Positions 2,121 through 64,000 of a stretch of DNA of 64,000 nucleotides are shown here, piece after piece. The notes below the pieces were generated by a model that was given only the letters and a program-made list of their open reading frames with translations, was not told the DNA's origin and ran no database searches. The translations under genes were made by a program, and so were the position numbers. This DNA is from an uncultured Eubacteriales bacterium (GTDB taxonomy: Bacteria > Bacillota > Clostridia > Lachnospirales > Lachnospiraceae): contig ONED01000004.1 in the NCBI GenBank assembly GCA_900316755.1, positions 713 to 64,712 of the forward strand, read 5' to 3'. Within the stretch, counting starts at the first letter, position 1; each line of letters begins with the position of its first letter.

Positions 2121-3287
2121 CTACTTTTGAAGCGCTTCCATTGCCGCTTCCAGTTGATTGTCCCTTTCCGGATTGGTTTCATCATACTCGTATTCTACCA
2201 CGATATCCGGCTCCACACCAATTCCATGGATATGGTTTCCATTTGGTGTACAGTATTCAGATACTGTGAGCTTCAGACTCGTACCATCATTCAGCCGAAA
2301 TACATTCTGTACGATGCCCTTTCCGTATGTCTTCGTTCCTACTAAATTGCCGATTCCATAGTCTTTTACAGCGCCGGCAAAAATCTCGGACGCGCTGGCA
2401 CTGTTTCCATTGATTAAAACCGCCATCGGAAGACTTAACTTCCGCTCCTCATCCGAGTAAATCACTTCTTCCTTCCCGTTTTTATCCTTCGTCGAAACAA
2501 TCCTTCCCTCGGGCAGAATCAAATCCAGCATGTCGCACACCGTAGAAAGATTTCCGCCGGGATTCTCTCTGAGATCAATAATCACCGCTTGCATTCCCTG
2601 CGCATTCAGGTGATTGAGCGCCTCCTCAAACTGACTGCCTGTCACCTGTTCGAATCCGGAAACATAAATGTAGCCGATTTGATTTTCCTTCATTTCATAA
2701 GCCACTGTTTTGCTGACAACCGTGTCCCTTTTGGCTGTGCAGGAATATTCCTCCCGGCTCTCCCCGCGAAGCACGGTAATCTCCACCGTGGTTCCCTTTT
2801 CTCCGCGAATCTTTGATACAATCGTATCCAAATCCAGCCCCGTGACGTCTTCTCCGTCTACCTTGTAGAAAATATCTCCTTCCAAAAGCCCTGCTTCCTC
2901 GGCGGGGGAGTCCTCGTAGAGTTCTCTTAAGGTCACCTGGCCGGTCACTTTGTCCTGACTTAAAACTGCTCCGATTCCGACAAACTCTCCGGTCGTCATC
3001 TCCATCAGTTTTTTCGTCTCCTCTTCCGTATAATATACCGAATACGGATCGCCCAATCCGGCAACATACCCTTTCATCAACAGTTCCTGCAGCTGCGTCT
3101 CATCGATTTCATCTTCATACAGGTATTCCTTTTCAATAAGATGACGTATCATCTCTAATTTATACTCTGTATCTGCAGTAACAACTTTTCCTCCCATAAG
3201 ACGCGGTGCCAGTAAAACTGCCGCAATCAATAACGTAACAAGGGCACCACAAAGTGCCCCCTTGATAAAACTCTTGTGATTTTCCAT
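2121..3287 (-). CDS. ctpA: S41 family C-terminal processing protease with PDZ domain
   Basis: GLGDPYSVYY, PDZ GIGA motif, DLRENPGG, NSASASEIF, GTKTYGKG; N-terminal TM segment. Confidence 0.9.
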   Translation of the reverse strand: MENHKSFIKGALCGALVTLLIAAVLLAPRLMGGKVVTADTEYKLEMIRHLIEKEYLYEDEIDETQLQELLMKGYVAGLGDPYSVYYTEEETKKLMEMTTGEFVGIGAVLSQDKVTGQVTLRELYEDSPAEEAGLLEGDIFYKVDGEDVTGLDLDTIVSKIRGEKGTTVEITVLRGESREEYSCTAKRDTVVSKTVAYEMKENQIGYIYVSGFEQVTGSQFEEALNHLNAQGMQAVIIDLRENPGGNLSTVCDMLDLILPEGRIVSTKDKNGKEEVIYSDEERKLSLPMAVLINGNSASASEIFAGAVKDYGIGNLVGTKTYGKGIVQNVFRLNDGTSLKLTVSEYCTPNGNHIHGIGVEPDIVVEYEYDETNPERDNQLEAAMEALQK

Positions 3288-8124: not shown

Positions 8125-11100
8125 TTATTCCGCTATCTCAATCTCTTTCTGCAGGGCAAACGAATAAATCATCTTTTCTTTCACATGCTTTCCGGTAATC
8201 TGTTCCAATGCCTTTGCATAATATGCAAGCTGGAGCTGATATTTATCTATAAGCTCCTGCTCCTTGTGTACCCGGTCCGTTTTATAGTCCAGCACCACCA
8301 GTTCCCCCTCTTCCTCAAAGTACACGTCAATAATTCCCTGAATCAGAATCATCTCTCCTCCGGTTCCATCATCGCCAAGTACAAATGGCTGTTCCGTATG
8401 GAGGAGCTTCTTTTGACATGCCCTTTTCAACCGTTGACCGATTGGAGCATGCAAAAAATGAAGAATCTCCGGAATCTCAACGCACTCCGCCATCTCCTCC
8501 GCCAAAAATCCCTTTTTCGTCATCTCATGGATGGCTTCCCAAAGCGCTGTCTCCTCATATTCCTTTGAGAAGTCTAAAAGCTCCAGCACTTTATGATAGG
8601 CACTGCCGCGGGAAGCGCCCGTAATTTTTACTTCTTTTTGCAAGAACTTCGGAAAAAGCGGAATCACCTCTTCTTCCTCCATTTCCTCTTCTTCCAGATA
8701 AGCTTTCTTTTTTAGTTCTGAGACAGACACCTTCTGTTTGGTTTTTGAATCTGACACGAACGGATACCGGAACCCGAACTGTTCTTCAAGCTGTTCTCTG
8801 ACCTTGGCATCGTACACCGCATCCGTATCCCACCGTTCTAGAATCTGCCTCGTAAACTGTTCCATGACCGTCTCTCTTATCTCCTCCTCGCAAAGCAGAG
8901 CCGGATTAAGCCAGTTTACTTTCATCGGCGCCTCAAAAGCCGGATTCCGGTATAAAGCCGGAATAACCCAGTCAAAATAGCTCCGGGCTTTCACAAGGCT
9001 TGTATACGGAAGCGCCTTCTCTTTACGTCCTTTCAATCGGATACAGCGCGAAAGCCTTGCTTCCGGATTCGTCACAGTTCCCGTAAGGATTAATTTTTCT
9101 TTGGCACGGGTCATGGCAACATAAAGAATGCGAAGCTCCTCTGCCGTCGTCTCTTTCTGGACTTCCTTTTGAATCATGCGTTTCAAAAGCGTAGGGGTTT
9201 TCGTTCTCCTCTCTAAATCTACCGCATCCAGACCTACTCCGAGGTTCGGATGAAGAACAATACCTGCATTTGCATCCTGCATATTGAACCGCTTATCCAT
9301 ACCGGCCACAAACACGATGGGAAATTCCAGCCCCTTGCTTTTATGGATACTCATAATCCGCACCACATCCGTGGACTCTTCGACGACATTTGCCTCCCCA
9401 TAGTCCACATCATATTTATGGAGCTGTTCAATATAACGTACAAAATGAAACAGCCCCTTATAGCTGGTTGATTCGAAACGAATGGCTTTTTCCACCAACA
9501 TTTCTAAGTTTGCACGTCGCTGCTCTCCTCCCGGCAATGCTGTCGTATAAGTTCCGTATCCGGTTTCATCCATAAGATTCCAAAGCAGAGTGTGGATTGC
9601 CGTATAAGGTACTCTTTTTCGCAGGCTTTCATATTGAGTCAGAAAGGTCTCAAGCTTCCTTTTCAAACTGCTGCATTCCCCCTGCTTCGCATAGGCGCAG
9701 GTTTTCTCATAAAAACAGATTCCTTCAAACCCATTCTGAATCTGTGCAAGCTCTTCCTCTGAAATTCCGGCGAAAGGAGAGGTAAGTACCGCCGCAAACG
9801 GAATATCCTGTCTCGGATTATCCAAAATGCGCAGATAATCCAGAATCATCCGAATTTCCCTCGTCTCAAAGTATCCTTCCTTGGAGCCGCTGTAGGCAGG
9901 CACCCCTTCCTGTCCCAGCGCACGGACGAACACATCCGCCCATCCTTTCAGGCTTCTCACCAGAATCACAATATCGCTGTATCTTGCCTTACGGTATTCT
10001 CCTGTCTTTGTATCCAGAATCTCATGGTTTCCCACCAGACTCTTGATTTTTCCGGCAAGAGCCCTTGCCTCCAGCTCCCGCAGATTTTCTTCCCCGGACA
10101 ATTCCGACGCATCTATAAGACAGACCTCCGTCTCATTTCCTGCGCGGTCTTCATAAGCCGCACCCACATGAAGGGCTGCTTTCTCGTCATAAGAAATTCC
10201 TCCAAAGCCCTCTGTCATAATCTGTTCGAACACAAAATTAGTGCTTTCCAGAACTTCCCGTCTGCTGCGGAAATTCTTGTGCAGGTCAATCTTCTGCATG
10301 GGACCGTCTTTGGCGCTGTAGGTACGGTATTTTTCCATAAAAAGCTCCGGTCTGGAAAGCCGGAACCGATAAATGCTCTGCTTCACATCCCCTACCATAA
10401 AGAGATTCGGTTTTCCCTGCGAAACCCTGGACACACTGGTCAAAATTGCCTCCTGAATCAGATTGCTGTCCTGATATTCATCAATCATGACCTCTAAGAA
10501 TTTTTCCTGATACTCTTTTGCCGCAGGACTCGGAAGATATTCTCCATTTACTTCCTCCGTCAGAATTTGGAGCGCATAATGCTCCATATCTCCAAAATCA
10601 ATCATATTTTTACTCTGCTTTTTCTGGGTATATGCAGCCGAAAATTCTTTCACCAACTTTGCCAGTACTCCCATGTTGGTCTTTGCCCCACACATATCCT
10701 TCTGCAGTTCTTCTGCAGACGCAAAGAAATAATCCTCCCGAATTGTCGAAACTGTCTTTTTCCATTCTTCCCGCAGTTCCTTTACCAGTTTGATTTTCTC
10801 TTCAGAGACTGTTTTATCCCGATTGCGTGCAAGGCTTTCCCATGAAAGACCGGAAAAGCCTTCCTGCATCGCCGCAAAGCTTTCTGCCTCCCGAATCCTT
10901 TTCAACCGGCTTTTGTCGGATTCCAGAGCACCAAGATACGCCTTCGGTCCGTCTTCCTCCCGGCAAATCCCCTCTGCAAACAAAATCGTTTCCTCAACAT
11001 CCACAAGAAGCTTCTCTGCCTCCTTCCGGACATTCATCACAAAAGGCGCCTCTTCCAGTTCAGAAACCGACCGGATATCATAGCGTGCTTCGTTTGTGTC

Positions 11101-24434: not shown

Positions 24435-24474
24435 AAAAACAGAGAGCACATTGTAATATGCTCTCTGCTTTTTT
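24435..24474. terminator. Bidirectional terminator between ssrA and the HEPN gene
   Basis: cagagagca (24440-24448) / tgctctctg (24459-24467), flanked by A and T runs. Confidence 0.8.
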
Positions 24475-24862
24475 ATGCATTCAGGTATTCTTTTACTGAT
24501 CGAATTACTGATTCGGCTGTTTTAATCTGTTCTTCTGTTTCTTCTTTAGATGCAACATAAAAATCATCATAATCGCTATCTTCTCTAATCTGTTTCAGAT
24601 TTCCAATTTTTCGCCCTAGGGTTTTAGGAAATTTTTCTGTAGCAACATACTCTTTATTGAAATAGGAAACCACATCTTTATGCCTCTTAAAGTCCACAGA
24701 GCCAAGAGCGAGGACTGCTTTAATTGCATAGAATACAGAATAGTACGAACGATTAATCGAATCTTTGTAAAATTCACCTTCTAAACACGTTTTTGCAACA
24801 GTCAGACTTTCTTCTGCTTGTTGCAATCTGTAATTACTCAATTCTTTCTGTCTATCATTCAC
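24473..24862 (-). CDS. HEPN-domain protein, putative toxin
   Basis: AEESL..A....G.Y..SINRSYYSVFYAIKAVL and REDSDY (Rx4Y); overlaps the MNT gene by 8 bp. Confidence 0.85.
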   Translation of the reverse strand: MNDRQKELSNYRLQQAEESLTVAKTCLEGEFYKDSINRSYYSVFYAIKAVLALGSVDFKRHKDVVSYFNKEYVATEKFPKTLGRKIGNLKQIREDSDYDDFYVASKEETEEQIKTAESVIRSVKEYLNA

Positions 24863-25187
24863 TCAGAACAACTCCTTCCTTTTGGACATTGTCATAAAAT
24901 GGCAGTACACCAAGCCAATAATTGAAATGTTCCTCATTCTTGATAACTACGCTTATATCCACTCCGTACTCCATTTGGAAATCAAAAGCCAAATCATAAA
25001 TGGATGTTTTCGTCTTTCTAATCTCTTCATCTGTAAGAGTAGTCAATATCATAATATCAATATCTGAGTTTTCTCTATAATCTCCACGCGCATAAGAACC
25101 ATATAAAATGACTTTCTTTAAATTCTTTCCAAGAATCCTTTTTACTTGCCCAGTAAACTCTAAAAGAATATCGTGTGTACTTTTCAT
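24855..25187 (-). CDS. Minimal nucleotidyltransferase (MNT), putative antitoxin
   Basis: Exact GSx10DxD motif (GSYARGDYRENSDID). Start MKSTH after AAAGGAG (ORF track starts at 25235). Confidence 0.88.
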   Translation of the reverse strand: MKSTHDILLEFTGQVKRILGKNLKKVILYGSYARGDYRENSDIDIMILTTLTDEEIRKTKTSIYDLAFDFQMEYGVDISVVIKNEEHFNYWLGVLPFYDNVQKEGVVLSE

Positions 25188-25286
25188 ATATCCAACTCCT
25201 TTCCCAAATTTATTACTATAGGTATTATACATCATTTATACCTCTCAATCACGCATTCGTGCGTCTTATCATTTTTGTTCATATAG

Positions 25287-25403: not shown

Positions 25404-25514
25404 TCAAACCAATGGGAGTTTTTCTGTTTCATCTTCCTCACCGGACGTACGAATTATCTCTCTGTCATTGATCCAAAGCACCACCATATCTGGAATCTCA
25501 TATTTCTGTTTCAT
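25404..25514 (-). CDS. Unannotated 36-aa peptide, MKQKYEIPDMVVLWINDREIIRTSGEEDETEKLPLV
   Basis: Manual translation; strong RBS (TAAGGAGGGG) fused to the stop codon of the 812-aa gene; paralogous to the peptide at 61374-61505. Confidence 0.8.
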   Translation of the reverse strand: MKQKYEIPDMVVLWINDREIIRTSGEEDETEKLPLV

Positions 25515-25527
25515 GTTACTCCCCTCC

Positions 25528-27966
25528 TTATTTCGTTAGGCAGCTTTCAGCAGCCTGATTATACAAATAAAGTGATTTTACAAGGTTCTGTAATGTTGCT
25601 TTCGTAGAACCAGTCAGTGCGTAATATCCATATGTAAGTGCACTTACCGTACAGGTATCTGTTTCTCCCGTTACAGTGTTTTTTACGGTAATCGTATGCA
25701 TATCGCCCAGACTGCCTGCTACAATGTTTTCAATTGCGATATAATAGCTTCCGCCCTCTGTCTGACGAATAACCGGAGTACAAGTAGATGATGTAACTTC
25801 CAAAGCATCTGCTGTAACACCTGATGCACATGTAAAATACAACCTTAATGTTGTTTCTGATTTTAGTACCAGACTAATATTCTGCATGGCAATCACATTT
25901 TGCGACTGCAATGGCTGATATTTGTATTCTAAAAAGGCATCTGTCACTACATCTTCGAGTAAGCCCTGATCCGCCGATTCTAAACCTGCATTTGTCAGAT
26001 TATCCGCATTATAGTTAAAATATTGCTGTGCATATGCGCCATAATTTAACATGGTTTTCACAAGTTTCTGAATGTTTGGATCCGTTGTCTGGGTAAGAAC
26101 ACTCTCTGCATACTGTTTTATACTGTAATTATATTCCTGACTCTTCACACCATCGTAATATACAACAATCTTCACTGAATCTGCCATTTCTTTGGCAGGA
26201 ACGAGGCAACTGAATGGATAACCATTCTCTGTAGCTGTCCCTGCATCTTCGAACCTAAGATGCTCTATCGTTCCATCCAGGAATTCAAAACGAACATTTG
26301 CCTTGCTCTTCTCCTGCTCCGTAACTGTTCCATCAAAATCCAAGAAGAACTGAAATTTAATCGTCCCTTCCAAAGTCGCACTCGAGCCGGAAATAGATGC
26401 CTTCTTCGTCCAGACTTTCACGTTGGAAACGGTAGTAGTTCCGCTGTTTGCATAAATGTATGGTGCTCCTGCCACTCCATCCGTGTTGCCCGTGGTACAC
26501 TTCTCAACCACCTTCTCGCCATTCATCCACATACTGACCTTCTGTGGCTCCACGCAGAAAGTAATCCGAATGCCGTCTGCAAGACCGGTCGCTCCACTTT
26601 TCTCTGCAAGGTGTACGTTTGACGCAGAATAAATACACCAATAATTTTTCTGTAACAACAGTCTGCCGTGATTTCCACGGTTATAAAGCCAACAGTCTCC
26701 GTCTGATTTTATCGTATAGCTCACATAGAAAGTATCCTCCGCCGGGATGGCATCCGTGTACATATTTCCATACCTCGCTTCACTGTCCACGCTCAGAGTT
26801 TCTGTTCCATATTTTAAGGAATCTGTTGTTTCGCAATACACCGGCTCATCTGATAACGACACCTTTTCTGTCCAAACCTGAATATTAGAGACTTCAGATT
26901 TTTCAAAACTCCAGAGAATCATTGGTCTGGCCGCACCTACATCCAAAACCGCATCATCAAAAATCTTCACATTACCCAGCCAGATTTTCAGCGTGTTCAT
27001 GGCAGAATAAAATGTCAGCGTAACACCTGCACCTCCCCCGCCGTATTTACTGGTCAGATTCGAAAGCGCGTCATTTCGAATTTGTTCTGTTTTGGGAGTA
27101 TCGTTTCCATTAAATATTCGGTAGAAAAATGGTGTCAGTTGGATATAAGAACCATCTGCACGACACTGGATTTCTACGTTTCCTTCATTTTTCAATGTCA
27201 TCGTGCAGTAATATGCCGAATCTGCAGGCATATCTGTCTGAATCGCCGCGTCCCCTTGGCTTGGAACTGTCAGAACTTTGCTTTCTGCATCATAAGTTCC
27301 TCCCAGAGAGCCCTGAACCTCATACAACACCTCTGAGGATGGGTCATATTGGGGGAGAGCAGTCGCAACAGTCCAAAGCTGTATATCTGTAATCGTCACT
27401 TCACTGTATGTCCATGTGACCTTTGGCTGTGATGCCCCCGAATCCGTCACAGCAATGTCAAACACCTGCTTTCCTCCTGCCCAGAATGCCATTCTGTCAG
27501 TAGACGAATAAATAGTAACACGCAGTCCATCCGTAAAATTTCCGGACACTCCCGTACCGTAATTATACCAATTGCCCAAACTGCTACTCCCGCAACCGCC
27601 ACTTTGGATATTAAAATAAATGCCACCTAAGCGTGCCTGCCAGTTAAATCCCCTGTAATCCGAGGTCTTCACTGTCATGCTAAGACAATAGGCCGCTTCT
27701 GCCGGCAAGTCCGACAGAATCTCTGCACTTGAGATTGCCGATACAGTGAGCATTCCATCCGTATAATTTCCTCCGTTTGATCCTGTAACAGGATACCGCG
27801 TATCCTTCCCTTCTTGAAAGACCGGCTCCGTGTTTCCCGGCTCTGCTGCCAGAACCGGTGTATCTGGTTGTAATTTTAAATACGCAATTGACAAACCTGT
27901 AACTAATGTTAATGTTAACAAGAATCCCAAGAGGGATTTTCCGCTATTTTTGATTTTATATAACAT
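25528..27966 (-). CDS. Exported 812-aa protein: three beta-sandwich-like modules plus a conserved C-terminal domain (LVKTMLNYGAYAQQYF)
   Basis: Signal peptide; three repeats ending DIQLWT, NIQVWT, NVKVWT; C-terminal ~290 aa aligns by eye with the 61524 gene; no TM or LPxTG anchor. Confidence 0.85.
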   Translation of the reverse strand: MLYKIKNSGKSLLGFLLTLTLVTGLSIAYLKLQPDTPVLAAEPGNTEPVFQEGKDTRYPVTGSNGGNYTDGMLTVSAISSAEILSDLPAEAAYCLSMTVKTSDYRGFNWQARLGGIYFNIQSGGCGSSSLGNWYNYGTGVSGNFTDGLRVTIYSSTDRMAFWAGGKQVFDIAVTDSGASQPKVTWTYSEVTITDIQLWTVATALPQYDPSSEVLYEVQGSLGGTYDAESKVLTVPSQGDAAIQTDMPADSAYYCTMTLKNEGNVEIQCRADGSYIQLTPFFYRIFNGNDTPKTEQIRNDALSNLTSKYGGGGAGVTLTFYSAMNTLKIWLGNVKIFDDAVLDVGAARPMILWSFEKSEVSNIQVWTEKVSLSDEPVYCETTDSLKYGTETLSVDSEARYGNMYTDAIPAEDTFYVSYTIKSDGDCWLYNRGNHGRLLLQKNYWCIYSASNVHLAEKSGATGLADGIRITFCVEPQKVSMWMNGEKVVEKCTTGNTDGVAGAPYIYANSGTTTVSNVKVWTKKASISGSSATLEGTIKFQFFLDFDGTVTEQEKSKANVRFEFLDGTIEHLRFEDAGTATENGYPFSCLVPAKEMADSVKIVVYYDGVKSQEYNYSIKQYAESVLTQTTDPNIQKLVKTMLNYGAYAQQYFNYNADNLTNAGLESADQGLLEDVVTDAFLEYKYQPLQSQNVIAMQNISLVLKSETTLRLYFTCASGVTADALEVTSSTCTPVIRQTEGGSYYIAIENIVAGSLGDMHTITVKNTVTGETDTCTVSALTYGYYALTGSTKATLQNLVKSLYLYNQAAESCLTK

Positions 27967-27979
27967 CTTTTGTCCCTCC

Positions 27980-30900
27980 TTACTTTCCTTCCCAGATTTT
28001 TACATCTTCCACATTGGTGTATGTTCCACCGTATGCCGAAAATGCCACATAGGTACCCGGATAATCACTTAAATTGCCAGTCAGGCACAAATCTTTTACC
28101 TTCTGTCCATTTATCCAGAACTCAGCCTGATTATACTTTATTTTTACAGTGCAGTACATTTTTTGCGATGTCCATTTCGTCTGTAAATATCCCAGACCGG
28201 AGTTGACAAATTGTGGCCAATTACTAATCTGTACATTATTCTTCTTTGCTTCCAAGAGAACGCACTGGTTTGGATAAATGCGCAGTGCAATATTCCTACT
28301 CTCCGTTCCCCTTAAGGATACCTGATAATACTGGGCATCCGTATCAACTGCAAAAGACATACAGAACTCGTTTCCGGAAATTGGCATCTCCGGGAGTGCC
28401 ATCGTCTGTGCTGATCCGGTACTGTTTCCAATTTTCATAAGGTTCTGACTCGCTATAAGCCTGCCCCTTCCACTTGCGTATACCGGTCTGTCACAAGGTG
28501 TCTCTCTCCAGACTGTAATGTCAGAAACGGCTGCGTTCTTTCCGGCATAGACGTAAACGCCGGGACTTGCAGCGACATACGCAGACACATTTTTGGTATA
28601 GGCAAAGTCCTGTATTTTCTGACCATTCATCCAGATTTCCATGTCATTGCCTGCCACATGCATGGTCACACGATTTTTATCTTTTAGATTCAAATTGCTG
28701 ATTCCACTCTTGGAAAATGGATTCCAATTTGTAAACGTCTGATTTCCTCCTTGATTTACTACCACATACTGCGTAGGATATACACGGAGAGCAATGTACT
28801 CACTTCCGTTGGACAAATATGCCACGTGGAAGCAATCCGCCGTCACATCTGAAATAGTGAAGGAATAATAATAGTCCTCCCCATCCGCTAAACCGGTAGT
28901 CAGGATTGCACTCGTCGCATTGTCTCCGCCAAGAAGGACTCCGTTATTCTTGGCATCCACTATGGTGCTGCCTGTGTATACCCCATCGCTTAACAATACA
29001 TGACGTTCGGCATCATAATAAGGTTCATCTGTTCCCTTGGACCATATTTGAACATTGGAAACAACTGCTGTTTCCCCACTTGCGAGTGAGAAGCAAAGTC
29101 CCTGTACACTACCTGTCATTCCGATATCCGACAAGAATCCATCCGACAGTCCAATCGGGATACCATTCACCCATAATTGCACGCTTCCATCTGTCACGGA
29201 CACTGTCACATTCTGCATCTTTGAAATGATTAGCCAGTCAACAGACTTACTATTTCTTATGCTATCTCCTACATAACCGAAAACCATTCCATCCTGCAAG
29301 CGCAGCTTCGAATACTGCGTCCCATCACTGTGACAATAAATATCCAATGCATCCCCTGTCGTTTCCACGTCAAAGGACATCGCATAGTCTCCTTCTGTGA
29401 TTGTCGTATCAAACCATGCCTCCGGTGCAAGATTAGCGAAAGTAATCTCTAGATTAGCGAAAGTAATCTCTCCGTTCACACAAGTAGGTTCGGTAATACA
29501 GGTAATTGTGCCTATTTGATCCTTTCTGTTCGGAACCGGGCATCCGCTGATACCGGACTTTTCTTCCCAAACTGTCAAATTCGAGATCTCAGCACTCTGG
29601 GAGTCCTTCAAAGGTAAATATACTCCACAGTAGGGACTTGCATAAGTCGAACTCACATAACTATCAGTATAAGTAATCGCCGGCATCTCCACTCCGTTAA
29701 TCCAAAGCTTTACGCTGTTCGCATCAGAGCGCAGCACCACATGATGATTCTCGGATAAAGTAACGCTACCAAGAGACGTGTTCTTAAACTGCGTCCAGTC
29801 GCTTACTCCACCCCCGTCTACGACCGCCACACACTGGTTACTATAGATACGAAGTGCCAACACCGCATTGGTTGCTGTTCTGTATCGTATTTCATAGTTG
29901 TTTCCATCCGTTTTCACATCAAAAGAAATACATCTGTCATCCCCGGTCAAATTCGTGGCAAAATCTGCATATGCATTTTTGCCCGTCACACGATATACGT
30001 TGTTTACTGCGTCATAGTTTCCGCCCTTGATTTTCACATCACCGGAAATCACATGGTCATATTTACCGGGTTTAACCGGTAATTCTTCATTTGTAAGATC
30101 GGTAAGACAAAGCTCACTAAAAGTGCTGTTCGTGTTATAGGAAGCAATTCCTACTACGCCACCGTCAAATGAACCTATTATCATCGATAATTCTTCGCAA
30201 TATACCCCGTTAACATAGACTTCCAGATGATTCTCCTTTTGCATCATCCATAGCTTTGCACTGCTTCCGTAAGTCGTGTTGCTCTTTGCAAGCTCTTTCC
30301 CGTTTCTTTTTAGTCTTACATATCCATCCTTATACAAAGCCAGATAATAACCGTCAGATTGTTCCACAACCGTACGCTGCTTTGCTCCGATGACAAAACC
30401 TGCATAGCAGTCTTCATCTGTCTTTACCTGATTTACGGTTACATTACCGCCAAACATTACATCCGTAAAACCAATTGCAGAAATATGGTCAAATGTGGAC
30501 ATGCGATAGTAAACGTCGTTCCATAGTTTTGTATCAGATACAATTTTATTTCCACTCTGTACAAATGACGCCTGATAATCGCCCAGAATATCCGTCCAGT
30601 TCTGTGTCAGGCTGTGTACCGAATCATTGAGAATTTTACCTATACCATCCAGATAATATGTCATATATCCCTGTTCTATACTTACTCCGTCTACTGAAAA
30701 GACAAAATCTCTTTCTTCTCCCACGTAAACCCAAATGGTGTCACCCACACGCTCCACTGCCACAGCAAGACCGGTGGAAGGAACTGTCACGTTCACGCTC
30801 TTTAATTCTGTACCATTATAACTCAGGGCTAATTTCCCTGCAGAAGTAAGACTCAAGACATACGCCTGTCCTATCGTCTCATCCAATGTTGCACGCAGCA

Positions 30901-59855: not shown

Positions 59856-60776
59856 ATGAGAATAATAACATCAGTCTCACATCAGGATGAGCCTCTAATC
59901 GGCTGTAATCCTTCCAGATACCTGAGAATAATAACATCAGTCTCACATCAGGATGAGCCTCTAATCGGCTGTAATCCTTCCAGATACCTTGAGCTTTTGG
60001 GCTGTGGTCTCTATGATTTACGAGGTACGACCTCCACTTTTACCTGTAACCGTCCCGCCAACACCTGCCAAAACTATATGCTGCAGATTCTGGTAACAGG
60101 ACAGGGCTTCCATATCATAGACGGGGTGACCCATATGCTTCAGGCAGGTCAGTGTATCCTTTACAAGCCAAATCAGTCGCAACAAATCATACATTATGGA
60201 AAAGATGACCCATTATTTATGTGGCTGCATTTTGACGGAAACGGAGCTTCGAACATCATTACCGATTTGCAGCTCGAGGGCATCCACACCTTAACCGGCA
60301 CCTCCGCGTTAAGAAAACTCCTCTTGCAACTGGTAAGTGAAAAACGCTCCTCTCTCCCCAACAATGAGTACCTGTGCCAGAGTCAACTGCTCTACTTTCT
60401 TGTGACGCTGTCCCATACATTTGCAGAAAACTCTTCCCATGTGCTTTATTCCGGAAAAGTCGCCCCTGCCATGAATCATATGATGACACACTACGCAAAG
60501 CAGGGGTTATGCAATCAGGATTATGCAGAAATGTGTTGTCTGAGTGAATCTAGATTTTCACACATATTCAAAGAGGTGACCGGAACCACTCCCAAAAAAT
60601 ACGTGGAGCAGAAAAGAGTAGATGCCGCAAAAGAACTACTCGCTTCCTCTCAGCTTCAGATTTTTGAAATTGCTACATCCGTAGGTTATGATGACCCCTA
60701 CCATTTCAGCCGTGTCTTTAAGAAAATCGTCGGAGTTTCTCCACAACTCTATCGCAAGGAACATAGCAATACCTAA
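59856..60776 (+). CDS. AraC/XylS family transcriptional regulator with a duplicated N-terminal 22 aa
   Basis: Cupin-like sensor (LYKPNQSQ..W.HFDG) and double HTH (SESRFSHIFKEVTG; IATSVGYDDPYHFSRVFKKIVGVSP); divergent from the glycan operon. Confidence 0.92.
   Translation: MRIITSVSHQDEPLIGCNPSRYLRIITSVSHQDEPLIGCNPSRYLELLGCGLYDLRGTTSTFTCNRPANTCQNYMLQILVTGQGFHIIDGVTHMLQAGQCILYKPNQSQQIIHYGKDDPLFMWLHFDGNGASNIITDLQLEGIHTLTGTSALRKLLLQLVSEKRSSLPNNEYLCQSQLLYFLVTLSHTFAENSSHVLYSGKVAPAMNHMMTHYAKQGLCNQDYAEMCCLSESRFSHIFKEVTGTTPKKYVEQKRVDAAKELLASSQLQIFEIATSVGYDDPYHFSRVFKKIVGVSPQLYRKEHSNT
59857..59988. repeat. Exact 66-bp tandem duplication, in frame
   Basis: Unit 59857-59922 is repeated at 59923-59988 (RIITSVSHQDEPLIGCNPSRYL x2). 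Confidence 0.95.
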
Positions 60777-60890: not shown

Positions 60891-61310
60891 CTACTCAAAT
60901 GGTACAAACGGAAGCTCAATGGGCTTAGAATTTCCCGGCTGTGGGTCTTCCTGATTCGGTTTCTCCGGTTGTTCTTCGTCAGGCTCTGACGGGAGCGGCA
61001 TAGGTTCTTCACTTTCCGCAACGATTGGTAATTCTCCCTTTTCCTTATCCGTAGTCCCGGCCTGATTTTCTTTTGATGCTGAACTATCTTTATTCGTAAC
61101 TCCTTGGTTTTCTTCCGAAGAATCCTCCGTCTTCTCCGTCCCGTCCTTTTTTGAATCGTCCGGTTGTTCCTGCCCCTGCTCCTGATTTATGGTCGGCTTC
61201 GTGACATCATTCTCCTTTTTAGACCTCTGTTTCCAAAAAAAGAGGCTGCCAACTGCGGCAACCAATAAAATTACCACACCGATTACAATCCATTTTTTCT
61301 TGTTTTTCAT
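60891..61310 (-). CDS. 139-aa single-pass membrane protein with an acidic disordered linker ending IELPFVPFE
   Basis: MKNKKK plus TM helix, low-complexity E/D/Q/P/K tail with ELPIV and ELPFVP motifs; GAGAGGAG RBS. Confidence 0.8.
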   Translation of the reverse strand: MKNKKKWIVIGVVILLVAAVGSLFFWKQRSKKENDVTKPTINQEQGQEQPDDSKKDGTEKTEDSSEENQGVTNKDSSASKENQAGTTDKEKGELPIVAESEEPMPLPSEPDEEQPEKPNQEDPQPGNSKPIELPFVPFE

Positions 61311-61373: not shown

Positions 61374-61505
61374 CTATGAGGACGGCAATTCCACCGACGT
61401 AGCTGCCGGCACAAACGGCAGTTCATTCTCTCCGCTTGTACGTATGATATCATCACTATCAAAGGATACCATTTCCATCTCTGGAGTACTATATATTTCT
61501 TTCAT
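61374..61505 (-). CDS. Unannotated 43-aa peptide, MKEIYSTPEMEMVSFDSDDIIRTSGENELPFVPAATSVELPSS
   Basis: Manual translation; RBS GAAGGAGG directly after the stop of the upstream gene; paralogue of 25404-25514. Confidence 0.82.
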   Translation of the reverse strand: MKEIYSTPEMEMVSFDSDDIIRTSGENELPFVPAATSVELPSS

Positions 61506-63459
61506 ACTGATTCCTCCTTCTCATTATGCAGAAAAATAAGCATTTGCTTTACTATTATACAGATACAACGCTCTGACGACATTTTTTAATTCTTCTGCCT
61601 TATCCCCGGTATAGCCCTTCAAGACATTGTAACAATAGGTCATCGGGCTATAAGTTACTTCTAAAGAATTTTCTCCGTATTTGACTGTAACCTTATAATC
61701 TGTATCCAAATTCTTTGCATCAATATCCTGAATAGTCACATAATAGTATATTCCACTCTTCACCGGCTTCAAATCTTCACTTCCATTTGAGAACGTATAA
61801 AGCGACACATCAGCCCCAGCTGGTAGTGTGAAATACAACTTCAGGGTAGTCTCTGACTCCAGAATCAGACTGGCACCTGCTAATCCGGCAAACTCATTTG
61901 ATGGTGCAGACTTCGCAAAACGTTCAAGATCTGTTTCTGTTACACCAGAAACATCCGTATCGACCAAACCATCGTTTGCAAGAGCCTCTGTATTGTATCC
62001 AAAATAGGTCTGTGCATATGCACCGTAATTCAACATCGCTTTTACCAGAGGAATCGCTTTTCCGTATGTAGCTTCATCATTCAAAATCGAGTCTGCATAA
62101 TCCTTCACACTATAAGTATATTCCTTGCTGACTGCATCTCCCGCAACAACCTGCGCCTTAATCTCCTTTGTCATTTCCTTTGCAGCAACCTCACAGGTAT
62201 ATTGATATCCTTTATCCGTAGAAACACCTGTCACCTGCTGAGTACTTCCATCCGGAAGTGTAAAGTTCATCACTGCCTCTTCAGGATTAATTGCTGCACC
62301 CAGATTCATATAAAAGTTTACACCAATGTTTCCATCCAGAGTGATATTGTGTCCTGCAGGCTCTGCCACATTCAATGTCCAGATTTGAATATCTGACGCT
62401 GTTACCTCAGAAGCAAAACTCCATGGTATATCCGGATTCGTACTACTGTTTGCTGTACTATATGTTCTTTCTATAGCTTTCTCACCATCTACCCATATCT
62501 TAAATCCAACCGTGTCTGAATATATCGTAATCTTTACTCCGGTTGCCAACTTAGCAAACAATTTCTGGTCACTCACCCATGTATTTTCTGTTGTACCATC
62601 GAAACTATAACCTACTTTCTCAATATGAATTAGTGAACCAACTCGTGTCCCAATATTGACATAATTATCGGTTTTAACCCGCATCGTCATATAATATGCT
62701 GCATTACTCGGAAGTTCCGTTGTCACTCCAGCACCTTTTTGAGCAGGTACTTTGAGTTCTCCATCTGCATATGTACAACCTTCTGCCACACTTGTGATAT
62801 TATATTGCTTATCTTTGGTTTCATCATAAACAGGCTCGTCATTTGCATCTTTTGTCTTCCAAAATGCAATATCCGTTATCGTTGCATCAGCAGTTGCTGC
62901 CCAAGTCACCCATGGTACACCAACCTGTCCAGTCGTTGCCATCGCAGCATCGTCTGCCAGTTTTTCTCCGTTTATCCAAATCGTCGTCTTATCCGGTTCA
63001 CTTCGAAAAGTAACCTTAATACCGTCATCACTTAGACCCCTGTCTCCCTGTGGCCACATATTCTGAACTAATCCGTAAAACCCACATTGTTTCTGGTCTA
63101 ATAACATTCGTCCTGCTGTATCGTCTGCAGTCCCCCTATATCTAAACCAGATTGAACCTGTTGTCACTACTTTAAATGTCCCAAAATATGTTGTGTCTCC
63201 CGGGATTGTAACGCCCCAACTCTGTCCGGCAGTCCCAGCTGAAACTATTTCACTAGTTGACATATATTTTAAGGTATCTGTTTCTGCGTTATAAACCGGC
63301 TCATCTGATACGGGCGGTTCTTCAGCACCATCTTTTGCTGTCCAAACCTTGATGTCGGACATAGTTGTATCTGCTACTGCCCAACTCACCTGTGGTTTCC
63401 CTGCCTTTTCAGCTGCACTAGTTGTTAATGAGATGTTTTCTTCTACCTTTTCACCATTA

Positions 63460-63495
63460 ATCCATAATGTAGTTTTCATCCATAATGTAGTTTTC
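63460..63495. repeat. Exact 18-bp tandem duplication, in frame
   Basis: atccataatgtagttttc x2; protein KTTLWM-KTTLWI. Confidence 0.95.
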
Positions 63496-63746
63496 GTTGA
63501 TTCACTACAAAGGGTGACCTTTACGCCATCTGCACCATTCAAACCAGTATTGATACTCCCCCACAATTGATTATTGTCAGCATCTGCTACACCAAGTAAG
63601 CCGTATCCATTCGTTTTTATGACTAGTCGTCCTTCTGATCCTTTGTAATTAAAATAAAATGTATCAGTTGACTTTGCCGTGAAGCTTACATAATATGTCT
63701 GGTCTGCAGCAATTGAATCATACCATACATTACCAGCGCTTTCGGC

Positions 63747-63778
63747 TGAAATCGTTTCGCTATGAAATCGTTTCGCTA
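63747..63778. repeat. Exact 16-bp tandem duplication, frameshifting
   Basis: tgaaatcgtttcgcta x2. Confidence 0.95.
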
Positions 63779-64000
63779 GCATTTTCGTACTTGAGTATGC
63801 ATGTACTTGCAGCATAGCTTGGCTCTTCTCCTTCTGCTTCCGCCACCCCGGTGTACTGCATGAAGGAACTTCCGACAAGTACTGCCGCGAGTAACAAACC
63901 ACATAGTCTTTTCCATTTTTTTAGTTTCATCTCATTTTCCTCCTCGTTTTTTACTATCTTAAGACTTTATATAAATACTATACAGCTTTCTTTTTTTGTT

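Follow-up and report, generated by a model that had tools for sequence, protein, structure and literature searches.

The window analysed here, a 64,000-nucleotide stretch of contig ONED01000004.1 from an uncultured Eubacteriales bacterium, carries two long genes on the minus strand whose products are exported proteins with homologous C-terminal ends (Table 1). Each of the two proteins has an N-terminal signal peptide, three ConA-like repeat modules and a C-terminal domain of ~290 residues, and each gene precedes a small peptide gene on the same strand. A gene for a small membrane-tethered stalk protein is found beyond the second peptide gene.

Table 1. Features of the two loci, with positions given in the window
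Feature	Position	Strand	Size	Description
Exported protein 1 gene	25528-27966	-	812 aa	Signal-peptide-like N-terminus MLYKIKNSGKSLLGFLLTLTLVTGLSIA, three ConA-like modules, C-terminal domain
C-terminal domain, copy 1	25528-26406	-	residues ~521-812	Predicted two Ig-like beta-sandwiches, each followed by conserved helices (LVKTMLNYGAYAQQYF and LVKSLYLYNQAA)
Repeat modules of protein 1	26407-27849	-	~150-170 aa each	Three divergent ConA/LamG-like modules, probably glycan-binding
Peptide gene 1 (pep1)	25404-25514	-	36 aa	MKQKYEIPDMVVLWINDREIIRTS followed by GEEDETEKLPLV; starts 13 nt after the stop of the domain gene; RBS GGAGGGGAG; followed by a hairpin
Exported protein 2 gene	61524-63930	-		Signal peptide MKLKKWKRLCGLLLAAVLVGSSFMQYTGVAEA, three modules, C-terminal domain; split by a frameshift in this assembly
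ORF with the signal peptide of protein 2	63760-63930	-	56 aa	
ORF with the rest of protein 2	61524-63902	-	792 aa	From GTG
C-terminal domain, copy 2	61524-62372	-	residues ~511-792	
Tandem duplication in gene 2	63747-63778		16 nt x2	Perfect repeat of TGAAATCGTTTCGCTA, right after the signal peptide
Peptide gene 2 (pep2)	61374-61505	-	43 aa	MKEIYSTPEMEMVSFDSDDIIRTS followed by GENELPFVPAATSVELPSS; lies 18 nt after the domain gene; has an RBS; followed by a terminator hairpin
Stalk protein gene	60891-61310	-	139 aa	N-terminal membrane helix, ~100-aa acidic low-complexity stalk, C-terminal tag ...KPIELPFVPFE

A shared C-terminal domain in two exported proteins

The two whole proteins align at 29% identity with an E value of 8e-72. 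Their last ~290 residues align at 36.6% identity (E 1e-41), and a tblastn search places these at 26406-25531 and 62366-61539, with no third copy in the window. The original prediction, that the two proteins share a conserved C-terminal domain, is confirmed by these alignments. Its coordinates are correct, although the strand was not stated, and all of the motifs that it listed (AKEM, YS[IV]K.YA, LVK.MLNYGAYAQ.YF, SETTL[RK]LYF and LYLYN) are present in the alignment. The three upstream modules of each protein are also real. Self-BLAST did not show these internal repeats, but when the modules were cut out and compared against each other, all pairwise E values were ≤3e-4 (1e-25 to 3e-4 for protein 1), and relatives carry PF06439 and PF21708 hits. 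Orthologues of protein 1 exist at 73-85% identity. Both peptide genes are real ORFs with Shine-Dalgarno sites, and pep1 is conserved behind the 73%-identical orthologue of protein 1 (LKQNYEIPKMEVSWVDAQDVILTSGEEDELEKLPLDW). It should be mentioned that the frameshift in gene 2 results from a perfect tandem duplication, which may be either real or an artefact of the assembly. Further perfect tandem duplications, at 63460-63495, 59857-59989 and 29430-29471 and in the contig C87 peptide, may likewise be real or artefacts.

The domain cannot be assigned to any named family. Searches of Pfam and NCBIfam with both proteins and both peptides gave nothing usable, with only chance-level hits (Sel1 at 13 bits and TcaA_3rd_4th at 15 bits), and precomputed Pfam annotation of 72 homologues shows hits only in their N-terminal parts. 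AlphaFold2 folds copy 1 confidently (pLDDT 88.7, pTM 0.85) as two Ig-like sandwiches, each followed by conserved aromatic helices. A Foldseek search of the PDB with this model returned only antibody Fab chains at TM ~0.2 and rmsd ~17 Å, reflecting generic tandem Ig-like sandwiches, and no cohesin was among the 50 matches listed. A profile search of PDB sequences found nothing below an E value of 0.17. The invariant columns of the family alignment are Y, Y, Q, F and I, plus hydrophobic core positions, and an enzymatic role was rejected for lack of conserved catalytic-type residues.

Copies 1 and 2 match the family profile with E values of 1.8e-93 and 3e-108, respectively. The family is very large, with 16,311 representative clusters at E≤1e-3 and 4,651 at E≤1e-30, and is found on secreted proteins of gut and rumen Clostridia. 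Cultured carriers include Ruminococcus callidus MSK.21.81 and the Ruminococcaceae bacteria AB4001 and YRB3002. Among the best 150 representatives, 143 end within 10 residues of the C-terminus, although in about 10-15% of cases the domain is internal. In a crude test of 130 representatives that begin with M, 83 have signal-peptide-like N-termini, and none of 136 representatives has LPxT[GAN] in the last 60 residues. No SLH, CWB2, LysM, GW or WxL module was found at the C-terminus in the Pfam and NCBIfam searches. The N-terminal parts are highly varied. The proposal that the domain always follows three repeat modules holds only for these two proteins and their close relatives; elsewhere it follows F5/8-C, beta-helix, transglutaminase, LRR, heparinase, CotH, Big_2 and other modules.

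The C-terminal position on many unrelated secreted proteins without a sortase signal could suggest a conventional non-covalent cell-wall anchor that binds a wall glycopolymer or peptidoglycan, as SLH, CWB2, GW and WxL modules do, with the neighbouring genes serving another purpose. The conserved surface-type aromatic residues (Y, Y, Q and F) could bind sugars as well as peptides, and a third of the loci have no neighbouring peptide gene. However, the domain shows no similarity to any known wall-binding module in the searches above, and this reading, which we consider unlikely, does not explain the tight gene-order coupling to tag-bearing peptides and stalks, the matching tags within a locus or the confident placement of the tag by AlphaFold, all described below.

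Neighbouring peptides, stalk proteins and a candidate maturation gene set

The link to a small peptide gene is general. All four domain genes in this 2.1-Mb genome are followed by a peptide of one family, and only five such peptides exist in the genome; the remaining one, on contig C89, sits beside proteins that lack the domain. Among domain loci collected from other genomes with an 8-sequence alignment, 45 of 70 eligible loci have such a peptide, plus one more missed by the regular expression (46 of 70), leaving about a third of the loci without one. The original prediction had named two outcomes that would count against it, a match to a characterised domain of unrelated function and the absence of any peptide association elsewhere, and neither was observed.

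The peptides have a fixed 20-residue leader-like head, with the consensus YExPEMEIVxFxxEDVITTS, and a short acidic tail, often ELPxxP, although only about half of the tails carry an [ED][LMT]P motif. The same tag ends small membrane-tethered stalk proteins encoded beside domain genes. In the window, pep2 and the neighbouring stalk both carry ELPFVP; on contig C87 the pair is EMPEIP and ELPVVP, and in one of the loci elsewhere, L059, it is ELPWVP and ELPWIP. Ten downstream ORFs in the 80 loci compared end in the tag, six of them in [IV]ELPFVPxx and the others in YELPFVPN, EDELPW[IL]PA or TLPIIPAM. Further stalks end in ELPFVPAD, QLPFVPYE.., LLPEVPI and SFPIVP. In this genome the only real ORFs that end this way are the two stalk proteins. 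It is noted that most loci show no stalk gene within 2.4 kb. ELPFVP-coding hexamers are not enriched overall in genomes with the domain relative to a reversed-pattern control; only their positions are informative, because all three hits in domain-positive genomes lie just downstream of domain genes.

A cluster of genes for a kinase-like protein, a PqqD recognition protein, a peptidase-like protein, DUF624 and an exporter lies on contig C69 of this genome, with no precursor gene of its own. The set resembles that of linear polyphosphorylated peptides (LPP; lppA-K-B-S-D-N), and the PqqD, peptidase-like, P-loop HprK-like and MsbA-like exporter genes are in the same order as in lpp. The discrete PqqD-type protein matches PF05402 at 65 bits on C69 and at 47.9 bits beside the domain gene in another genome, G035. 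The exporter (ABC_membrane plus ABC_tran) is found on C69 and in a further genome, G156, and an NTP_transf_5 nucleotidyltransferase is found in G035 at 141 bits. The peptidase assignment rests on a TIGR02228 hit at E 7e-8 and 32.5 bits, below the curated cut-off of 51.85, with an SGVSMEP motif, and the kinase assignment, also below the curated cut-offs, rests only on weak ScmC and HprK_rel_A hits plus a P-loop (SGTGKST). The peptidase-like gene co-occurs with the domain in 7 of 9 against 24 of 192 genomes (Fisher p = 3e-5). In G035, kinase-like, PqqD, peptidase-like and NTP_transf_5 genes, the domain protein, the peptide and the stalk form one gene run, and adjacency is also seen in genomes G156, G023 and G165.

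We compared the peptides with the LPP precursors (Popov et al., Nat Commun 2026, PMC13381572) and paeninodin-type lasso pathways. The peptides share a conserved head starting Y-x-x-P-x-[ML] and a variable tail, and we regard the RRE-binding leader motif [Y/W]xxPx[L/V/I/F/A] as present, in the forms YEIPDM, YSTPEM and YEEPIM in this genome. Across 50 family peptides Y or F is invariant, but the proline is kept in only 18. The extended LppA consensus YxxPxVLxHQxIxFETxxS is absent: there is no HQ, and FET is either absent or at a different distance. The head is 2-3 residues longer, and the precursors are scattered behind surface-protein genes rather than inside the cluster. A strict LppA reading of the peptides was rejected because the extended consensus is absent. 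The LPP study covers Bacilli, states that the biological role is unknown and does not mention a receptor domain.

The co-occurrence and adjacency of the peptidase-like and exporter genes might also suggest that the domain itself is a sorting or processing signal, recognised by the putative archaeal-type signal peptidase and the ABC exporter, as SipW processes TasA and TapA, and removed or modified during export. The C-terminal position is similar to that of other sorting domains. However, the proteins already have classical N-terminal signal peptides, the domain is predicted to be a large, well-folded two-sandwich unit unlike short sorting tags, and the PqqD protein and the putative kinase point to a small leader peptide as the substrate, with five orphan leader-type peptides in the genome. 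We consider this reading improbable.

A proposed tag-docking role of the domain

AlphaFold2 was applied to the natural read-through of domain copy 2, pep2 and the stalk. The terminal ELPFVPFE block has a pLDDT of 82, with DSSP strand or bridge at residues 491 and 495-496, against 37-49 for its flanks and 88-98 for the domain itself. It should be noted that this is a single run on an artificial single chain, judged without coordinates, PAE or a scrambled-tag control. The internal ELPFVP of pep2 stayed below pLDDT 50, so that peptide binding is not predicted directly. The conserved head of the peptide as the piece that binds the domain is not supported either, since it stays at pLDDT 37-52.

Considering these observations together, we propose, with moderate confidence, that the domain is a modular, non-catalytic tag-receptor placed at the C-terminus of secreted proteins, attached in this window to two triple-lectin-module glycan-binding proteins in an alpha-glucan utilisation locus. 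In this view, the protein is exported by its ordinary signal peptide, and outside the cell the end domain binds a short proline-containing tag, consensus [E]-L-P-[FVWI]-[VI]-P plus 0-4 residues, non-covalently and probably by strand addition. One carrier of the tag would be the extreme C-terminus of a small protein with an N-terminal membrane helix or lipobox and a long acidic disordered stalk, and binding to it would tether the enzyme at a distance from the membrane. The other would be the tail of the peptide encoded directly downstream, which is probably recognised, modified, cleaved and exported by the trans-encoded LPP-type set, and which after maturation would be either a second, envelope-linked adaptor or a soluble competitor that releases the protein. 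The homology, the fold confidence, the family size, the C-terminal position and the gene-order and co-occurrence statistics are established by our analysis, whereas direct tag binding (from AlphaFold confidence only), surface tethering and the maturation of the peptide, including any leader cleavage or polyphosphorylation of a core serine, are inferred. The earlier interpretation, a dedicated sorting or assembly domain without a named family that precedes a peptide gene, is thus partly supported: an assembly or docking role is the best-supported reading, whereas sorting in the sense of a secretion signal has no support.

The peptide, rather than the stalk, could instead be the physiological ligand, with the exported, modified peptide occupying the domain to release the protein or to change its activity, for example in density-dependent shedding, so that the domain would be a signal receptor rather than an anchor. 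The peptide gene is the most frequent neighbour, far more frequent than stalk genes, the peptide tails end in the same motif as the stalks, and a dedicated export set is present. However, AlphaFold did not place the tag of pep2, although the stalk tag may simply have competed for the site, and there is no regulator or sensor domain in these proteins. This alternative is unlikely on present evidence.

A more far-reaching possibility, which remains tentative, is a previously unrecognised surface-display system of Gram-positive gut and rumen bacteria, in which an unannotated receptor domain on thousands of secreted enzymes and adhesins plugs onto an ELPFVP-type tag displayed both by a membrane stalk protein and by a ribosomally made, enzyme-matured (probably phosphorylated) exported peptide. 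This would give LPP-type peptides their first biological role, as adaptors or release factors for surface proteins. How Lachnospiraceae, Ruminococcus and Oscillospiraceae keep their glycan-degrading enzymes on the cell surface is largely unknown outside the cohesin-dockerin and sortase systems, and the domain marks more than 16,000 protein clusters that have no annotation. If it is a socket for a short peptide tag, it would be an undescribed way of holding enzymes on the cell surface, would explain the surface retention of a large share of the fibre-degrading and adhesive proteins of gut and rumen Firmicutes, would give a testable role to a RiPP class of reportedly unknown function, and would provide a small, natural tag-and-receptor pair for protein display.

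The proposed system can be compared with the cohesin-dockerin assembly of cellulosomes and amylosomes in Ruminococcus and Clostridium, in that a modular, non-catalytic beta-sandwich domain is appended to many different secreted enzymes and is proposed to hold them non-covalently on a cell-anchored partner in fibre-degrading gut and rumen Clostridia. There is no sequence or specific fold similarity to cohesin (PF00963), however. The enzyme here would carry the receptor rather than the dockerin, the candidate partner is a 6-9-residue linear tag at a chain end and not a ~70-aa dockerin with duplicated calcium-binding loops, and a small leader-type peptide carries the same tag. The WxL-domain surface protein clusters of Enterococcus and Lactobacillus also encode a C-terminal non-covalent surface-attachment domain together with small membrane- or wall-anchored partner proteins, but no sequence match was found, and the fold, the partners and the taxa all differ. 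By analogy only, without homology or evidence of a covalent bond, the domain can be likened to PDZ domains, pilin donor-strand complementation and SpyCatcher/SpyTag, in that a sandwich domain is predicted to bind a short terminal peptide by adding a strand, as indicated by the DSSP strand or bridge in the tag.

Two exported proteins with a shared C-terminal domain and their surroundings

The two stretches that the original prediction described as a conserved ~290-aa C-terminal domain of two exported proteins are the 3' ends of two minus-strand ORFs, the locations of which are listed in the table below together with those of the other features. The whole proteins align at 29% identity with an E value of 8e-72, while their last ~290 residues align at 36.6% identity with an E value of 1e-41. 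A tblastn search with the domain located both copies and found no third copy in the window. Every sequence motif listed in the original prediction is present in this alignment, and the observation is confirmed. Upstream of the domain, each protein has three divergent modules of ~150-170 aa that are homologous to one another, with pairwise E values from 1e-25 to 3e-4. These modules are of the ConA/LamG/DUF1080 type, based on PF06439 and PF21708 hits on a relative. Protein 1 has a signal-peptide-like N-terminus. In contrast, the signal peptide of protein 2 lies in another frame in a separate short ORF, the frame being shifted by a perfect 16-nt tandem duplication. It should be mentioned that several further perfect short tandem duplications are present in the assembly, and all of these, including the 16-nt one, may be assembly artefacts or a real mutational pattern.

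The window is a Lachnospiraceae glycan-utilisation region, holding two giant exported GH13 enzymes, a GH106-like enzyme, two sugar ABC importers, a DUF5696 protein and an AraC regulator. Directly after each domain gene, behind a Shine-Dalgarno site, lies a small ORF followed by a hairpin (pep1 and pep2). pep2 is followed by a 139-aa protein, referred to here as the stalk, with one N-terminal membrane helix, a ~100-residue acidic low-complexity stretch and the C-terminus ...KPIELPFVPFE, which contains the same ELPFVP as found in pep2. pep1 is followed by a nucleotidyltransferase (NTP_transf_2/Polbeta) and HEPN pair, which looks like an MNT/HEPN toxin-antitoxin pair and is absent from the orthologous locus (L129), and by a two-component system.

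Locations of the features described in the text (window positions unless a contig is named; contigs without a genome label belong to the window's own genome)
Feature	Position	Strand	Description
Domain gene 1	25528-27966	-	ORF of 812 aa
C-terminal domain, copy 1	26406-25531	-	placed by tblastn
Domain gene 2	61524-63902	-	ORF of 792 aa from a GTG
C-terminal domain, copy 2	62366-61539	-	placed by tblastn
Signal peptide ORF of protein 2	63760-63930		56 aa; signal peptide MKLKKWKRLCGLLLAAVLVGSSFMQYTGVAEA
pep1	25404-25514		MKQKYEIPDMVVLWINDREIIRTSGEEDETEKLPLV
pep2	61374-61505		MKEIYSTPEMEMVSFDSDDIIRTSGENELPFVPAATSVELPSS
Stalk protein	60891-61310		139 aa
Nucleotidyltransferase and HEPN pair	24473-25235	-	immediately downstream of pep1
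16-nt x2 tandem duplication	63747-63778		frameshifts domain gene 2
18-nt x2 tandem duplication	63460-63495		inserts KTTLWM into the first module of domain gene 2
66-nt x2 tandem duplication	59857-59989		at the very start of the AraC gene
21-nt x2 tandem duplication	29430-29471		inside the 1858-aa GH13
~23-nt x2 tandem duplication	contig C87, ~2760-3010		breaks the fourth peptide gene
Fifth family peptide	contig C89, ~9690-9827	+	MYECPSFEIMNFDKMDIVTSG-type head, proline-free tail VDQGEIDLTGLDTIG
Two further PqqD-domain matches	contigs C23:9186-9350 and C57:16162-16320		a 118-aa ORF and a domain inside a 461-aa ORF
Domain protein with C-terminal extension	locus L047, 10109-12028 (genome G156, contig C2)		22 residues after the domain, ending ...RYPLPDLF

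Predicted fold and distribution of the domain family

No Pfam or NCBIfam family reaches significance for the domain, in agreement with the original prediction, in which it could not be assigned to a named family. An alignment of 25 domains shows invariant Y, Y, Q, F and I, plus near-invariant positions that are mostly hydrophobic, and no residues of a catalytic type are conserved. The AlphaFold2 model based on this alignment has a pLDDT of 88.7 and a pTM of 0.85, and the predicted fold consists of two beta-sandwiches, each followed by helices that hold the most conserved motifs. A Foldseek search against the PDB returned only antibody Fab chains at TM ~0.2, which indicates generic tandem Ig-like sandwiches, and a profile search of PDB sequences found nothing below an E value of 0.17.

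A profile search of 1.84 billion representative proteins found 16,311 clusters at E<=1e-3, 13,026 at E<=1e-10 and 4,651 at E<=1e-30. In 143 of the best 150, the match ends within 10 residues of the C-terminus, while in a minority of relatives the domain is internal and followed by beta-helix repeats. The N-terminal parts of relatives carry many unrelated modules, including F5/8-C, beta-helix, transglutaminase core, Flg_new, LRR5, heparinase II/III, CotH, Big_2 and metallophosphoesterase. The claim of the original prediction that the domain always follows three repeat modules is therefore not upheld. In a crude test, 83 of 130 representatives that begin with M have signal-peptide-like N-termini, and none of 136 has an LPxTG signal. 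Named records come from gut and rumen Clostridia, among them Ruminococcus (including the isolate R. callidus MSK.21.81), Lachnospiraceae, Oscillospiraceae, Roseburia, Saccharofermentans and others. One 4.9-kb contig binned as Prevotella sp. (locus L051, record JBJFGK010000030.1) carries a typical domain gene, a peptide and an ORF ending in ELPFVPAK, and is probably a mis-binned Clostridia contig. Within the window's own family, Lachnospiraceae, the domain is sporadic, being present in 9 of 201 genomes.

Peptide, stalk and candidate maturation genes near the domain

The window's own genome (2.1 Mb, 90 contigs) has four domain genes, two in the window and two on contig C87. All four are followed by a peptide of the same family, although one of those on C87 is broken by a tandem duplication. 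Only five such peptides exist in the whole genome. The fifth, on contig C89, sits between two exported proteins that are built from ~160-aa tandem modules and lack the C-terminal domain, and the peptide family is therefore not exclusive to this domain. Among 80 loci from other genomes, 70 have a terminal domain and at least 200 nt of downstream sequence. Of these, 45 have a family peptide gene starting within -30 to +150 nt of the stop, as identified with a regular expression that missed one more (locus L089). A third of the loci lack the peptide, and most lack a nearby stalk. pep1 is conserved behind the 73%-identical orthologue.

The peptide has two parts, a fixed 20-residue head, Y-E-x-[PVA]-E-[ML]-E-[IV]-[IV]-x-F-x-x-E-D-[VI]-I-T-[TA]-S, and a short variable tail with a median length of 14 residues and a mean net charge of -3.3. 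Of 50 tails, 24 contain [ED][LMT]P and 21 contain xPxxP, so that only about half show the motif, which usually lies 0-4 residues from the end, as in ELPFVPAQ, ELPVIPVN, ELPWVPANE and DLPPMPIE. At locus L025 (genome G007, contig C85), the small ORF just after the domain gene starts like the family (MKKAYVKPKMYYESF...) but is 80 aa long and cysteine-rich, and it may be a different class of modified peptide using the same head.

Small proteins with an N-terminal membrane helix or lipobox and an acidic or Thr-rich stalk lie next to domain genes in this genome, both in the window and on C87 (...GSIELPVVPLE), and in five of the eight other domain-positive genomes of the family sample. Their C-terminal tags in these other genomes are ELPFVPAD, QLPFVPYE.., LLPEVPI, SFPIVP, RLPWIFD and ELEIIPSN. 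In the 80-locus set, ten downstream ORFs end in the tag, six of them in [IV]ELPFVPxx and the others in YELPFVPN, EDELPW[IL]PA or TLPIIPAM. In the window's own genome, the only real ORFs that end this way are the two stalks. The tags of peptide and stalk match within a locus in three cases, with ELPFVP and ELPFVP in the window, EMPEIP and ELPVVP on C87, and ELPWVP and ELPWIP in locus L059. However, ELPFVP-coding hexamers are not enriched family-wide over a reversed-pattern control, although the three hits in domain-positive genomes all lie just downstream of domain genes.

The peptides were also compared with linear polyphosphorylated peptides (LPP; Popov et al. 2026, PMC13381572), the biological role of which is stated to be unknown in that paper, where neither Clostridia nor surface proteins are mentioned. 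The LppA consensus is YxxPxVLxHQxIxFETxxS. The peptides described here share with it only the Y-x-x-P-x-hydrophobic start and a conserved serine at a similar distance, and they are not LppA in the strict sense. Nevertheless, the genome holds a cluster on contig C69 with no precursor of its own, which encodes a P-loop HprK-like protein (with only weak ScmC and HprK_rel_A hits), a discrete PqqD recognition protein (65 bits), an archaeal-type signal-peptidase-like protein (TIGR02228 at E 7e-8, below the cut-off, with an SGVSMEP motif), a DUF624 membrane protein and an MsbA-like exporter. Two further PqqD-domain matches lie elsewhere in this genome. In the 201-genome family sample, the peptidase homologue is present in 7 of 9 domain-positive genomes against 24 of 192 others (Fisher p = 3e-5).

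The genes are also physically linked in other genomes. In genome G035, VanZ, kinase-like, PqqD (47.9 bits), peptidase-like and NTP_transf_5 (141 bits) genes, the domain protein, the peptide and the stalk form one same-strand run. In G156, the domain protein, stalk, kinase-like, peptidase-like and exporter genes are contiguous. In G023 (Lachnospiraceae bacterium RUI338), the peptidase homologue lies about 4 kb from a domain gene, and in G165 a PqqD-like gene follows the stalk.

Predicted docking of the terminal tag

In the window, the domain, pep2 and the stalk are all in the same reading frame. To evaluate possible docking, the natural read-through, with stops read as Gly (498 residues), was folded with the domain alignment as the MSA. 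The domain has pLDDT values of 88-98, whereas pep2, including its internal ELPFVP, remains below 50. The membrane helix is helical at 66-82 and the rest of the stalk is at 37-49, but the last eight residues (ELPFVPFE) reach 82, with DSSP marking strand or bridge at residues 491 and 495-496. Based on this single run of an artificial single chain, judged without coordinates, PAE or a scrambled control, the result fits the terminal tag docking onto the domain by strand addition.

The domain is best explained as a tag-receptor that docks secreted proteins onto ELPxxP-type tags, which would be displayed by membrane stalks and by matured, exported peptides. We hold this reading with moderate confidence. 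The coupling of the domain, the peptide, the stalk and the machinery at the gene level is well supported by the data, whereas direct binding and surface tethering are inferences, and the mechanism is predicted only. The domain could alternatively be a wall-polymer anchor, a sorting or processing signal, or a receptor for a regulatory or releasing peptide. The interpretation given in the original prediction, a dedicated sorting or assembly domain, is partly supported, in that the linkage to peptide genes is borne out and an assembly role is likely, while a sorting role is unsupported. We found no described counterpart of the domain family or of the three-part system, which we consider to be new in kind. 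It is noted that one domain protein of G156 (locus L047) carries a 22-residue extension after the domain ending in ...RYPLPDLF, a tag-like sequence on the receptor protein itself, which could mean self-docking or chain formation.
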